A DNA stretch of 64,000 nucleotides from Promethearchaeota archaeon (GTDB lineage Archaea; Asgardarchaeota; Lokiarchaeia; Sigyniarchaeales; SOKP01), in the NCBI GenBank assembly GCA_016839555.1, contig JAEOUA010000003.1, positions 340,112-404,111 on the forward strand, written 5' to 3'. How positions within the stretch are numbered: position 1 is the first letter of the stretch; each line of letters starts with the position of its first letter. Made by a program: the position numbers and the translations under genes. Positions 4,944 to 45,977 of this stretch are shown here, piece by piece. The notes under the pieces are model-generated. The model was not told the origin of the DNA. It made no database searches and saw nothing but the letters and a program-made list of their open reading frames with translations.

Positions 4944-5052
4944 GACCCTGTGGTCCAGTTGGATAGGGCGCTGGCTTGCGGATTGCGAGGGATTATGTCC
5001 CCCTCGTTTAGCAGAAAGCCAGAAATCGGGGGTTCAAGTCCCTCCAGGGTCG
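4944..5052 (+). tRNA. tRNA-Arg(GCG) with a 35-nt intron at 37/38 (4982-5016)
   Basis: Acceptor stem GACCCTG/CAGGGTC plus G; anticodon stem CTGGC/GCCAG; GCG at 4978-4980; T-arm GGGGGTTCAAGTCCCTC; BHB with a TTGC/GCAG helix and GGA and AAA bulges. Confidence 0.93.
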
Positions 5053-20532: not shown

Positions 20533-20646
20533 TGGGGACTGAGGGATTCGAACCCCCGATCTTCAGCTCACTCCCTTCCCTTTGCTTTTGGGTTAATTGC
20601 TTCGGGTTCTGGAGGCTGTCGCGCTACCGTGCTACGCCAAATCCCC
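20533..20646 (-). tRNA. tRNA-Trp(CCA) with a 40-nt intron at 37/38 (20569-20608)
   Basis: Acceptor stem GGGGATT/AGTCCCC plus A; anticodon CCA at 20612-20610; T-arm GGGGGTTCGAATCCCTC; CTCC/GGAG central helix with AGA and TGA bulges. Confidence 0.92.
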
Positions 20647-40509: not shown

Positions 40510-41924
40510 TAAAGATCCTCCCATTTGTTTAATTTTTTATTGTACTCAAAAAAATTAGAGGTTCTCAGAGACCTCATAAGGTAATTAAGATTTGGTAAAT
40601 CACTTTTATCATAATATTCAAATATTTGTTTTAAACAGTTTTTAAAATCTGGTGGACATCCTGAGAGGGTCAAGATATTCTTATTTTTTACTTCCTTTTC
40701 CTTTTTTTTAAGAAGTGTTTTTTTGATTTTAGTATAAAATTTATAGTTTTTAGTGGATTTAATCGCACAATCTCCAAATACAATAACATTATTGTTAAAT
40801 TGTGGTTCTGGAGGGTTTAATCCAACTAAAAAGGAATGATTTGGGATATATTTCACATCCTTTATCATTCTAGAATTCATAAAATTAAGGAGATGATATG
40901 CTTTCAGGAAACAGCCAGAGCAAATCTTACCAGAATTTACAAAGATGTTGGGAATCTTAATATCCTCCAATTTTAGACAAGACTGATTTAATTTAATCGA
41001 GATTTTCCCTAAATCTTCACCAATTAATTTAATATCTGAAATATGTTCGGGTCCTAATGATCTTTCAAATGCTCTTGATAATAGATCATTTTTAAACACA
41101 TCAAATCCTAAAAATCGGAGCGTTATAACATCAACGGAGATAAGATCAGTGCCCATAATTAACACATTAGTCTTCTTTAAGTTTGAATCTCTATAAATCA
41201 AGGGACCAGCCTTTTCTAAAACATAAAATACATCGTTTATTGTCAATATTGGTTTTCTTATGGCATATGTATTTAAAATATTAGAGATAAGATCTTGTCT
41301 AAATAGATCATTTTTAACAATTTCTTCATTTAATATATTATTATCATACTTTATATCTCTAAATTTCGCAGGTAATATTGAAAAATAATTAATCAGAGAA
41401 AGATCGCACATAAATAAAGGATTAATATTAACTTGAGTGATAACAATAATCTTATCGGAGTTAGTAATAACTTCAGGTACTTTTATTTTTTTCTCGCCAA
41501 TATTTATATCTTTTAATGAATCCGCTTTTAGATCTTTTAAATTTTTTACATTTAATTTTTGATTATAATAATCGCTATTATCTAAATAAACAAATTCTGC
41601 CCCCAGAGTTTTAAAATAACTCTCTAAACCCATTAAATCATCAAATAATTTGAGAGCAATTTTTTCAGATGGAAATGAGCCTATAAATATCTTATTTGCG
41701 CCTGCTTTTTTACAGGAATAGATAACTTCTTTGACAAGATCCATATTAGAATTCATAGGATAACCCAAAGGAACTCTCAGAGTAATTTTTAGAAAGACAT
41801 TATCTCCTTCTTTTATATATTGAGAAATTCCTCCAAGTTTATCAATTCCTTCTAAATAATTTTCCTCTGGAGATTTACCTTTCATAACTGCAACAAGAGG
41901 TTTTTTGGAGTTAGTATCACTCAT
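40509..41924 (-). CDS. DUF362 domain protein with a C-terminal Cys-containing (Fe-S-like) module
   Basis: LGGISQYIKEGDNVFLK, GTDLISVD, CSGC, FGDCA and GCPP. Confidence 0.75.
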   Translation of the reverse strand: MSDTNSKKPLVAVMKGKSPEENYLEGIDKLGGISQYIKEGDNVFLKITLRVPLGYPMNSNMDLVKEVIYSCKKAGANKIFIGSFPSEKIALKLFDDLMGLESYFKTLGAEFVYLDNSDYYNQKLNVKNLKDLKADSLKDINIGEKKIKVPEVITNSDKIIVITQVNINPLFMCDLSLINYFSILPAKFRDIKYDNNILNEEIVKNDLFRQDLISNILNTYAIRKPILTINDVFYVLEKAGPLIYRDSNLKKTNVLIMGTDLISVDVITLRFLGFDVFKNDLLSRAFERSLGPEHISDIKLIGEDLGKISIKLNQSCLKLEDIKIPNIFVNSGKICSGCFLKAYHLLNFMNSRMIKDVKYIPNHSFLVGLNPPEPQFNNNVIVFGDCAIKSTKNYKFYTKIKKTLLKKKEKEVKNKNILTLSGCPPDFKNCLKQIFEYYDKSDLPNLNYLMRSLRTSNFFEYNKKLNKWEDL

Positions 41925-43379: not shown

Positions 43380-44768
43380 TCATATATAATTTGGAATTTT
43401 AAATTTCCTTAGTTTTGCAATTCTATTTCTATATGGTCTTTCCTCTGGTCTTACATGCCAATCAAACCAATTTCTTAGATTTAAAGATATATATAATGTT
43501 CCATTTTCCGTTTCTATATAAAAAATCTTATCTTTTTCATCCACATACATATATGGAATTAAGGGTACGTCTTTTGTTTCATATTCTTTTCCATGTTCTA
43601 TTTCTTTTTCCCATCTATATATTGTATGACTTAATACATATTCCCACTCTCCATCTATTTCTTGAAAAATTGTATGCCTTACATAATGTTCTATTGGAAT
43701 TCCATATAGGTTTTGTTTCGATTCTTTTTTTTCGATTTTAAATTTCCCATATCTCTTGCTTTCTTCAGGAGTTAATTCTGGAATTTTCAAAGAATAAAGA
43801 GGATCGAGTTTATATGCATTGGGATGCTTTCGATCATAAACCCTTCTTTCTAATTGTTTCTTTATTCTCAATTGGTTCTCATCTAGGTTATAATATTTCA
43901 TGTCTAATTCTTTCTCAAGATTTTCAGCATTTTTTAAAAATTTATTAATTTCTGCTTCATATCGAGTTCTTAATAAATTTAAATGATCTTTTTCTAATTC
44001 ATATTGGACCCACCTAGTTATAAGAGAATTTCTAATATTGTAGAATATTTGTCTTCTATCATTAAGAAGAAATTGAGTTGTTATACTCCAAAGAGCATAT
44101 AAAAATGCAATTAATGAATATTGGGCACCAACTGAATCGTATCTATAGGGCCTATTAAAACTTTCTATATCTCGATAATATTCAATAAAAACTAGGCTTT
44201 TAATCCATGGCTCTAGCTGATTAAATAGTTCTTGAAATGCTATTAGAAAGAAAGCAAAAAATAAACTTCTCTTTTTCGGAATTTTTTTGGTTTTCCATAT
44301 ATCTGAGAGTAAGTATTTATTAAGATGTTCAAGCGCAAAAAGATGCTGATGAAATAAACCAATAATATATTTTACAAAATCCTTTTCATAATAAATATAC
44401 TCTTCTTCTTGTTTTTCTAAATTAATAACTGTTAATGGATGTCTGATGGTAAATATTTGATAATCATGAAAAAGGTTATACTTAAAAATATCATTAATGA
44501 TTTTTGTACATATAGATATTATTTCATTATTTGGCAATGGAAGAGGTTTATAAAATTCAAAATCTTGATTGAATTCTTGGCTAAAGTAATAATTAAAATA
44601 AAATAAATCTCTATCTTCCAATAAATATTCAATTTTCCATTTTTTTATTAAATTTTGAAAATAATTTCCTAATTCTTCAATATCATTATGTCTAGTATTT
44701 ACTATTTTTCTTATTTTTTTCTTTCTTTCTTCAATCTCCTTATTCCATACTGCAATCCAATCTGTCAT
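43380..44768 (-). CDS. Hypothetical protein
   Basis: 462-aa aromatic-rich ORF; no motif recognised. Confidence 0.65.
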   Translation of the reverse strand: MTDWIAVWNKEIEERKKKIRKIVNTRHNDIEELGNYFQNLIKKWKIEYLLEDRDLFYFNYYFSQEFNQDFEFYKPLPLPNNEIISICTKIINDIFKYNLFHDYQIFTIRHPLTVINLEKQEEEYIYYEKDFVKYIIGLFHQHLFALEHLNKYLLSDIWKTKKIPKKRSLFFAFFLIAFQELFNQLEPWIKSLVFIEYYRDIESFNRPYRYDSVGAQYSLIAFLYALWSITTQFLLNDRRQIFYNIRNSLITRWVQYELEKDHLNLLRTRYEAEINKFLKNAENLEKELDMKYYNLDENQLRIKKQLERRVYDRKHPNAYKLDPLYSLKIPELTPEESKRYGKFKIEKKESKQNLYGIPIEHYVRHTIFQEIDGEWEYVLSHTIYRWEKEIEHGKEYETKDVPLIPYMYVDEKDKIFYIETENGTLYISLNLRNWFDWHVRPEERPYRNRIAKLRKFKIPNYI

Positions 44769-44814
44769 AAATATTTTTTATGAAAATAATTACTATTGTA
44801 CTAAAAAAAATCCC

Positions 44815-45057
44815 TTAACCAAAATCTTTCTTTAAGATCCTTATCGCTTCTGGGAGTGTCAAGTGAGTTAAGTTTTGAGCTTTTTCTAAATGTTTCGGGC
44901 AAAACCAAGCGGCATAAGGAGGATGACCTGTAAAGCCAAGTTTTGATGCTTTTTTATCCCACTTCAAATCATTTGGTCCTTTTTTAAAATACAAAAGCTT
45001 GCATTCATCATTCTCTCCCATTCTTTTAGAACATACTTCACATATAGGTGGTTTCAA
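44815..45057 (-). CDS. Small putative zinc-binding protein
   Basis: CEVC...GHP...WFCPKH. Confidence 0.7.
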   Translation of the reverse strand: MKPPICEVCSKRMGENDECKLLYFKKGPNDLKWDKKASKLGFTGHPPYAAWFCPKHLEKAQNLTHLTLPEAIRILKKDFG

Positions 45058-45198
45058 TATTAATCAACTTATATTTTTAAAAATAAATATTTAATGTTTT
45101 AGATATAATTATAAAATTGGTTTAAACCTTTAATGAATTTCTCAATTTTCTAAAAAATATAATCTTATAATTTAGCCTTTAATATTAAAAGATTTAGA

Positions 45199-45269
45199 AT
45201 GTGTGCCCATTTGGAGATTCCTACTCATTGAAATTTTGAATTCTCATAGAAACACTATAAATGGGCACA
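45199..45269 (-). ncRNA. Putative single-hairpin box H/ACA guide RNA with a K-turn
   Basis: Lower stem GCCCATTT/AAATGGGC followed by ACA; internal loop; upper stem TTCTA/TAGGA; tandem GA pairs with a 3-nt AAT bulge. Confidence 0.7.
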
Positions 45270-45338
45270 AATAATAATATTGCAACTCAAAATAATTAAA
45301 TTTATTATTATAAAAAAAAGAAATAAGAAAAAAAATAC

Positions 45339-45977
45339 CTAAGTAGGTTGTGAATGTTGTTTTAATAAATCTTCATTAGTTTTGCCCATTTTTATTGCCA
45401 ATTCTGCTACAATCGCATCAAGGTAAGTAAATGCAATCTGTTCGAATTGCGTACCTTCAGGCGTGAGAACCGCATGATTTTCCTCATCTCGATCCTTTTT
45501 AGTTCTACCAAGGATTTTAATAGTGATATCACCGATACGCCCAACTACGGTCTCTGGGTGGCTGGTTATACATACTATTGCATGAGGTTTTATTGTATTT
45601 ACATAAGTTTTTAATAAACTGACAACAATAGATGTGGTACCCGAACCAGAAAGCACAATTAAAATATCTTTTTTTCTAAGAGCGGGGATATGTCCTAAAT
45701 TCGTAATCATATGAACTTCTGCCCCTAAATGCACTAATCGCGTTGCAAAACATTGTAAAATAAAGGCACTTCTTCCTGAGGCGAGGAGAAAGAATCTGCG
45801 ATTATTAATTATCCCATCATGAATAATATTTATAAATTTTTGCGTGTATTTGAAATTTTGATCAATATGCTCCATATTTTTTTGAAGGTTGTTCATGATC
45901 AATTCCATAGCTTGGAATAGGATTCTTTTTGTCTTACCATTGGTAGGTTGAGACTCAATCTCAATATCATCAGCCAT
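45339..45977 (-). CDS. hxlB: 6-phospho-3-hexuloisomerase (SIS domain)
   Basis: SGRS...FATRLVHLG, SGSGTT, ITSHPE, PEGTQFE, LDAIVAEL and a terminal H. Confidence 0.85.
   Translation of the reverse strand: MADDIEIESQPTNGKTKRILFQAMELIMNNLQKNMEHIDQNFKYTQKFINIIHDGIINNRRFFLLASGRSAFILQCFATRLVHLGAEVHMITNLGHIPALRKKDILIVLSGSGTTSIVVSLLKTYVNTIKPHAIVCITSHPETVVGRIGDITIKILGRTKKDRDEENHAVLTPEGTQFEQIAFTYLDAIVAELAIKMGKTNEDLLKQHSQPT

Follow-up and report, generated by a model that had tools for sequence, protein, structure and literature searches.

The hairpin that lies on the minus strand at about 45269-45200 of the window, by which we mean the entire 64,000-nt stretch of DNA analysed here, raises the question of whether this Asgard genome encodes a guide RNA at that position, and if so, which uridine the RNA would serve. 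The locus (inspected over 45272-45194) is intergenic, 70 nt past the stop codon of a SIS-domain gene (212 aa; 45339-45977, minus; Pfam SIS, 29.8 bits), and about 140 nt upstream of an 80-aa cysteine-rich ORF (44815-45057, minus), which has no match in Pfam. An earlier note had described an unannotated box H/ACA-like guide RNA here, and proposed a search with Infernal. At gathering thresholds, Rfam 15 returned two tRNA matches in the whole window and none at the hairpin; at E-values up to 10 it gave nothing meaningful between 44700 and 45800, where the best overlapping match reached 21.1 bits, on the wrong strand, relative to a threshold of 60. The locus is indeed unannotated, and no Rfam family matches it. 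The evidence set out below nonetheless indicates, with high confidence, that the hairpin would be an archaeal box H/ACA guide sRNA; that it is a single-hairpin guide aimed at the first loop uridine of helix 69 in 23S rRNA is, as a complete reading, likely.

The minus-strand fold has a minimum free energy of -24.2 kcal/mol, against -12.24 +/- 2.76 kcal/mol in 200 dinucleotide-preserving shuffles (z -4.33), none of which folds as well. The plus-strand fold is weaker (-18.3 kcal/mol; z -2.50), and is equalled by 3 of 200 shuffles. Read on the minus strand, the layout is UGUGCCCAUUU / AUAGUG(U) / UUCUA / U-GA-GAA...UUC-AAU-GA-G / UAGGA / (A)UCUCC / AAAUGGGCACA-CA. We assign the RNA to this strand because it alone has the K-turn, and the G.U pairs of both stems, in agreement with the earlier remark that the plus strand lacks the GA pairs. 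The covariance model scores 93.4 bits on the minus strand; in relatives, the opposite strand yields 30 bits at most.

With a 91-nt query against 60 relatives, BLAST recovered clear homologues (E below 2e-5) from 22 genomes, every one a member of the same family. The 22 homologues were aligned with the window's copy, giving 23 sequences, and a first covariance model (R1) was built from these; a second model (R2) was built from 52 sequences. Among 151 genomes sampled at the level of the order, R1 matched in 110 of the 131 other genomes of the same family, in 2 of 14 from the sister family, and in none of five from two further families. Among 151 genomes sampled at the level of the phylum, R2 matched in 24 of 25 of the same family, in both members of the sister family, and in none of 123 from 25 other families. 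Because these samples were searched with sequence-dependent models, a genome without a match counts as 'not found' and not as 'absent'. Two of the six other genomes in the window's own genus gave no match to R1. Nearly every carrier genome holds exactly one copy, and the gene is retained, in synteny, across at least ten genera.

The two stems have been maintained by compensatory change. In a MAFFT alignment of the 23 sequences, a structure of 21 pairs leaves 90.9% of cells paired, compared with 30-51% when partners are slid by 1-3 columns, and eight pairs are changed on both sides, a number that none of 500 shuffles reaches. In the model-fitted alignment (52 matches, 51 distinct), whose construction favours the model, paired cells make up 92.7%, as opposed to 31-48.5% when slid, and 16 of 21 pairs, in 115 cells, carry both-side changes, again equalled by none of 500 shuffles. 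The lower stem (P1) runs on through the UGU and ACA that had been taken as its flanks, for a total of 11 pairs, and in distant members it is wholly different, as in GCACCUG/CAGGUGC of one genus, or AGCCAAGAG/CUCUUGGCU of the sister family. The upper stem (P2) is present as proposed, and is longer than the five pairs first given to it: we count six Watson-Crick pairs, because the additional U-A is replaced by C-G in two relatives and by U-G in one. The G.U opposition at 45253/45217 never covaries, being A-A or G-A in one genus, and is therefore counted as the unpaired apex of the pocket. Since the upper stem takes the sixth pair, the single-stranded pocket is reduced to AUAGU(G) and (U)CUCC.

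The K-turn letters were located where the earlier note had placed them, and are conserved in relatives. We adopted the definition of K-turns and K-loops in archaeal H/ACA RNAs given in PMC7991803, the available text of which describes the two as alternating among such RNAs. The tandem G-A pairs adjoin P2, the orientation expected for an H/ACA K-turn or K-loop. In relatives, the apical segment ranges from 7 to 23 nt, and is self-complementary when long and K-loop-like when short; folded in isolation at 37 C, it forms any pairs in only 19 of 52 cases.

The ACA of the earlier note is also present. Relative to the base of the upper stem, counted as 6 bp, it lies at 13 nt, and a second, overlapping ACA, 2 nt further 3', lies at 15 nt. 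Relatives with a single ANA usually carry it at the second position, and the members reading GGCGC-ACA or GGGCAU-ACA carry it only there. The distance from the upper stem to the ANA is mostly 14-15 nt in relatives, and 11-13 nt in some. Some members of two genera have a lower stem that is shorter by 1-2 pairs, with either a sole ACA at 11-13 nt, or a box reading ACU, AUU or ACC. The ANA box, intact in the window, is imperfect in the family, where its third letter becomes U in eight rows of the 52 and C in one; in several of these, the closest ACA stands just 11-13 nt past the upper stem. Active guides of Pyrococcus are described, in the text available to us, as having upper stems of 5-6 bp with an ANA 14-15 nt away, and a 7-pair stem as non-functional among the predicted interactions (PMC2377435). 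The window's stem has 6 pairs, or 7 with the variable 3n-3b position included, and the Pyrococcus rules may not be those of this lineage.

Stems that vary, around a pocket, K-turn and box that stay, form the pattern expected for a guide RNA. The proposed architecture of lower stem, pocket, upper stem, K-turn and ACA is borne out by covariation and by the invariant letters of pocket and K-turn, and further by partner proteins encoded in the same genome: Cbf5 (423.7 bits), Nop10 (61.5) and Gar1 (30.5) all exceed curated family cut-offs, as do two proteins of the L7Ae family (81.8 and 50.6). A box C/D sRNA was considered, given that the bulged strand resembles a C box in many relatives, and was rejected: no CUGA stands opposite the G-A pairs, the non-bulged strand reading N-G/A-A-G, and the K-turn is internal to a long hairpin and not terminal. 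The coordinates of all features, with their conservation among the aligned relatives, are collected in Table 1.

Table 1. Elements of the candidate guide-RNA locus, in order of transcription, with window coordinates.
Feature	Coordinates	Strand	Conservation and remarks
AT-rich promoter-like element, AAA + UUUAAUUAUU	45291..45303	-	about 22-34 nt upstream of lower stem
Lower stem P1, 5' strand, UGUGCCCAUUU	45259..45269	-	11 pairs (94.9% of cells paired), 9 of which show both-side changes
Pocket, 5' guide strand, AUAGU(G)	45253..45258	-	52 distinct rows: A in 51; U, A, G and U each in 52; G in 48
Upper stem P2, 5' strand, UUUCUA	45247..45252	-	helix 2: 95.8% of cells paired; 5 of 7 pairs with both-side changes
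K-turn, non-bulged strand: N (3n), G (2n), A (1n)	45244..45246	-	A(1n) 52/52; G(2n) 45/52, A in 7
Apical element: GAA/UUC stem, G-C closing pair, 8-nt loop	45230..45243	-	closing G 52/52, C 51/52
K-turn, bulged strand: AAU bulge, G (1b), A (2b), N (3b)	45224..45229	-	bulge position 2 A 51/52, position 3 U 52/52; G and A each 52/52
Upper stem P2, 3' strand, UAGGAA	45218..45223	-	covariation
Pocket, 3' guide strand, (U)CUCC	45213..45217	-	of 52: U 49, C 52, U 52, C 51, C 50
Lower stem P1, 3' strand, AAAUGGGCACA	45202..45212	-	fold and covariation; includes the ACA first proposed, 45204-45202
Second, overlapping ACA box	45200..45202	-	aligned columns, of 52: A 48; C 41, A 7 or U 4; A 43
U4 run, 9 nt past ACA	45187..45190	-	putative; sequence only

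If the RNA is a guide, then its pocket strands should identify a substrate. Of its rRNA genes, the window's genome (G000) has only fragments, broken at the ends of different contigs (C5:603237-603905, C12:1-878): a 5' portion of 16S and the 878 nt at the 3' end of 23S. We therefore scanned full 23S sequences of relatives, together with partial 16S sequences. Each of five full 23S sequences contains the motif GGAGU-N-ACUAU a single time, in every case within helix 69, which belongs to domain IV of LSU rRNA; the motif is found again in the 23S fragment of the window's genome, at position 24, and is absent from the three partial 16S sequences scanned. Per shuffled 4,618 nt, 0.004 exact occurrences are expected by chance, or 0.081 with wobble, on pocket limits that were set after the helix 69 match had been seen. 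In all 23 loci that cover helix 69, the context is AAACG(C/G)CG-GGAG-UA-ACUAUAAC-UCUCUUAAGGUAGCC. Both pocket strands match GGAG-UA-ACUAUAA, which is the unique all-Watson-Crick match in the scanned rRNAs and leaves the intervening U-N unpaired; opening of the two uppermost A-U pairs in the lower stem would lengthen the 5'-side pairing to ACUAUAA. The sister family has an unrelated lower stem, yet its 5' pocket strand, GUUAUAGU, keeps this register and complements ACUAUAAC over 8 bp, and this predicted pairing offers independent support for the helix 69 register. One sister-family orthologue stands at C1:1403395-1403478 of the closed single-contig genome G044. Two members of another genus have CUUCC as 3' strand, which pairs with GGGAG. 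Registers that would place the second or third loop uridine of helix 69 in the pocket were rejected on inspection, the flanks not being complementary. Helix 69 is identical in all relatives, and thus offers no co-variation with the guide. From these complementarities, we consider helix 69 the probable substrate of the RNA, with somewhat more assurance than doubt.

The reading that best survives beside helix 69, and one which we regard as improbable, is that of a genuine H/ACA guide with some other substrate, such as an mRNA, a tRNA, a further small RNA or a weaker site in 16S. With helix 69, the 3' guide strand would form a duplex of 4 bp only, three of them G-C (-3.7 kcal/mol), which shrinks to 3 bp (CUCA) in the sister-family member L104; this is the duplex that matters most in the Pyrococcus work, as far as the available text of that study describes it (PMC2377435). 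Further, the apex G and U, one in each pocket strand, are unpaired with helix 69, yet conserved (48/52 and 49/52). A looser scan, allowing wobble and four registers, is expected to yield 0.77 chance matches per 23S plus 16S, and it did yield a site in 16S, GGGA-UA-AUUAU, of shifted register and with nine pairs including two wobbles, which is within that expectation. The 16S site lies at position ~510 of the genome's own 5' fragment (L001), and at 529 of the 16S from the relative G010. Genome-wide, GGAGU-N-ACUAU has nine exact sites where 6.8 are expected, and it is the location in rRNA alone that singles out helix 69; the scan extended to only partial 16S sequences and to the 28 tRNAs that aragorn reports for the genome, an incomplete set in which no full motif match was found. 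Against these points stand the standing of helix 69 as the sole rRNA match with Watson-Crick pairs throughout, at a chance expectation far below one, a 5'-side pairing that reaches 7-8 bp even in the sister family with its different lower stem, the fact that helix 69 is a known pseudouridine cluster, and the chance-level number of the eight further genomic sites.

A position so constant relative to a protein gene also invites a reading in which the hairpin guides nothing. The RNA follows the SIS gene on the same strand, at a distance of 27-110 nt, in 17 of the 18 loci that encode that gene, and archaea have regulatory K-turns bound by L7Ae. The hairpin might accordingly be a conserved element of the SIS-gene 3' UTR, or a terminator-proximal element, or an L7Ae-binding regulatory hairpin. 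We hold this to be quite unlikely, as a UTR hairpin needs neither two invariant internal-loop strands with a canonically spaced ANA box, nor exact rRNA complementarity around an unpaired UN. The flanking intergenic sequence is not conserved, and a promoter-like AT-rich signal intervenes between the SIS stop codon and the stem. In 53 homologous upstream regions, anchored on the start of the stem, information peaks from -36 to -20, with an A-rich stretch at -33 to -30 followed by T-T-T-A-A. The signal is weak; it fits an archaeal promoter for a start near the stem, but is no more than suggestive in flanks of 80% A+T from related genomes. At the other end, a scan of 44700-45800 found no site resembling an intrinsic terminator. 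Oligo-U is a termination signal in archaea, and it is for this reason that the U4 run (Table 1) is a possible end of the primary transcript. Of six sequencing runs listed, from four studies, none is recorded as RNA.

The target put forward in the earlier note, in which the pocket pairs with GAGAU-UC-CCACUGU of LSU rRNA, has a negligible probability. The segment, GAGAUUCCCACUGU, had been attributed to eukaryotic rRNA and draws no computed support: its best matches carry 3-5 mismatches, and thus at least three, in the seven rRNA sequences scanned, and the motif proposed as a check, GAGAU-N2-3-CACU(G/A)U, occurs in none of the five 23S and three partial 16S sequences, which come from relatives and from the window's own genome. 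CACUGU had been derived in error as the complement of AUAGUG, which is CACUAU, and the apex A-U that the pairing would require is in part used by the upper stem. A scan with the wider pocket of that note (AUAGUGU, AUCUCC) likewise gave nothing convincing. Nor does a functionless inverted repeat or mobile-element remnant account for the locus: hairpins are common in an AT-rich genome, and a simple descriptor scan returns 43 H/ACA-shaped candidates in this one, most of them surely chance and almost all with AT-only lower stems, but the hairpin studied here is the only one of the 43 with at least five G-C pairs in the lower stem, and its compensatory changes, in a single-copy, syntenic gene of at least ten genera, effectively refute such an origin.

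For the preferred reading, a guide directed at helix 69, we propose the following course of events. A gene of about 70 nt on the minus strand, just downstream of the SIS-domain gene, would encode a single-hairpin guide sRNA, probably transcribed from its own AT-rich promoter. By analogy with the solved archaeal particle, L7Ae would bind the K-turn, while Cbf5, Nop10 and Gar1 would bind the lower stem and the ACA box, and the pocket strands would pair with the 23S rRNA on either side of the first loop uridine of helix 69: CUCC of the 3' strand with GGAG, and AUAGU of the 5' strand, lengthened by as many as two U, with ACUAU(AA). The UA dinucleotide would remain unpaired, and its U would be converted to pseudouridine by Cbf5, at the position that appears to correspond to E. 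coli 1911.

The correspondence with E. coli may be specified further. In an ungapped alignment with E. coli 23S, the loop is identical, and the uridine predicted as target aligns with the first of its three. The aligned E. coli uridine stands at position 1908 of the 2,900-nt 23S gene annotated in the record used, for which reason its equivalence to 1911 rests on the identical loop and on the spacing of the following uridines at +4 and +6. In E. coli, the helix 69 pseudouridines are made by the protein-only synthase RluD. The helix 69 loop pseudouridines are listed, in the text available to us, as 1911, 1915 and 1917 of E. coli, and as 3727, 3731 and 3733 of human 28S rRNA in that paper's numbering (PMC2875026); the first loop site is therefore modified in both, and shares with the uridine predicted here its place ahead of two others at the same spacing. 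The human sites are served by two-hairpin H/ACA snoRNAs without K-turns (PMC7991803), unlike the one K-turn hairpin of the window.

The closest archaeal parallel is motif 3 of Pab40 from Pyrococcus abyssi (Pf7 in P. furiosus), which is reported to guide pseudouridine 2016 in stem-loop 69 of 23S rRNA (PMC2377435). As far as the available text of that study allows, both RNAs are archaeal H/ACA hairpins with a K-turn or K-loop, an ANA box and a target, predicted for the window RNA, in the helix 69 loop; both have Cbf5, Nop10, Gar1 and L7Ae as partners, putative in the present case and encoded in the genome (PMC2377435). As to dimensions, Pab40 has an upper stem of 5-6 bp and an ANA 14-15 nt from the target (PMC2377435), and the window RNA 6 bp, with 15 nt to the second ACA, or 13 nt to the first. 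They differ in that Pab40 has three hairpins and the window RNA one, in that the Pyrococcus site described is one of two highly conserved loop sites whereas the pairing in the window is predicted to select the first loop uridine, and in that Pab40 was tested by Northern blot and reconstitution (PMC2377435), while the window RNA is a candidate.

Nor has Pab40 detectable sequence similarity to the window RNA, no Rfam family having matched. In haloarchaea, the guide for helix 69 sites is sR-h45, which resembles the window RNA as an archaeal H/ACA guide for 23S rRNA, and departs from it in having two hairpins and different sites. Within the text available from a haloarchaeal report, the equivalents of 1915 and 1917 are the only helix 69 positions given as pseudouridine (PMC2584109), which weighs against the first loop uridine as the target here.

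The kind of RNA described here is thus already known, as are helix 69 guides in other archaea, and the family is new to Rfam. A literature search on H/ACA RNAs in Asgard archaea, which covered few subscription journals and in which the string 'H/ACA' was not directly searchable, found no paper; on balance, the chances are about even that we describe the first Asgard H/ACA guide family, one predicted to place a pseudouridine on the first loop uridine of helix 69. If the prediction is true, Asgard archaea would make the 'third' helix 69 pseudouridine by an RNA-guided route, as eukaryotes do, and a validated guide would add an rRNA modification site in the nearest lineage to eukaryotes. Sequence searches detect H/ACA guides with difficulty, and none in Rfam matches here; once validated, this one would supply a covariance model to annotate the gene in more than 100 genomes. 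As carriers and natural losers coexist within one genus, it would also offer a test system. Existing knowledge of the mechanism of the H/ACA particle would be unchanged.

Several observations on individual relatives deserve record. At L127:1228-1420, where the SIS protein is 83% identical to the window's, the interval that separates the SIS gene from the 80-aa gene's homologue holds only a short degenerate hairpin, with neither K-turn nor pocket; the guide gene appears to have decayed there. G003 and G005 are further relatives counted as lacking it. One genome, G026, is alone in holding two good copies (C6:108695-108780 and C129:2383-2468; E 5e-12 and 4e-11), each adjoining a copy of the SIS gene (L137, L141), so that either duplication or a mixed bin is possible. 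A contig titled Nanopelagicaceae bacterium (L139) carries both the SIS gene and the guide RNA (66 bits), and its bin label looks wrong. In most genera (for example L079, L085, L014 and L118), a conserved stretch just after the RNA reads, on the opposite strand, like the C-terminal end of a convergent protein gene; the window's genus differs downstream, with the 80-aa cysteine-rich ORF as neighbour. Six loci of one genus (L020, L023, L026, L106, L108 and L109) have an extra GC-rich hairpin of 7 bp directly 3' of the ANA box, GGGAGCC / 4-6-nt loop / GGCUCCC, with stem letters that vary slightly among genomes; it could be a 3' end or a stability element.

Two further model matches, L011:443-520 and window 40736-40794, are weak (24.2 and 16 bits) and were taken as chance, the former folding no better than its shuffles (z -0.05). 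Among the descriptor candidates, the only other one with a reasonably GC-rich lower stem (eight pairs, four of them G-C) is at G000 C11:99609-99686 (+). Lastly, the two tRNA matches of the window, at 4944-5052 (+) and 20533-20646 (-), span 109 and 114 nt; introns are probable in both because these spans far exceed that of a plain tRNA, and aragorn reports many long tRNAs across the window's genome.
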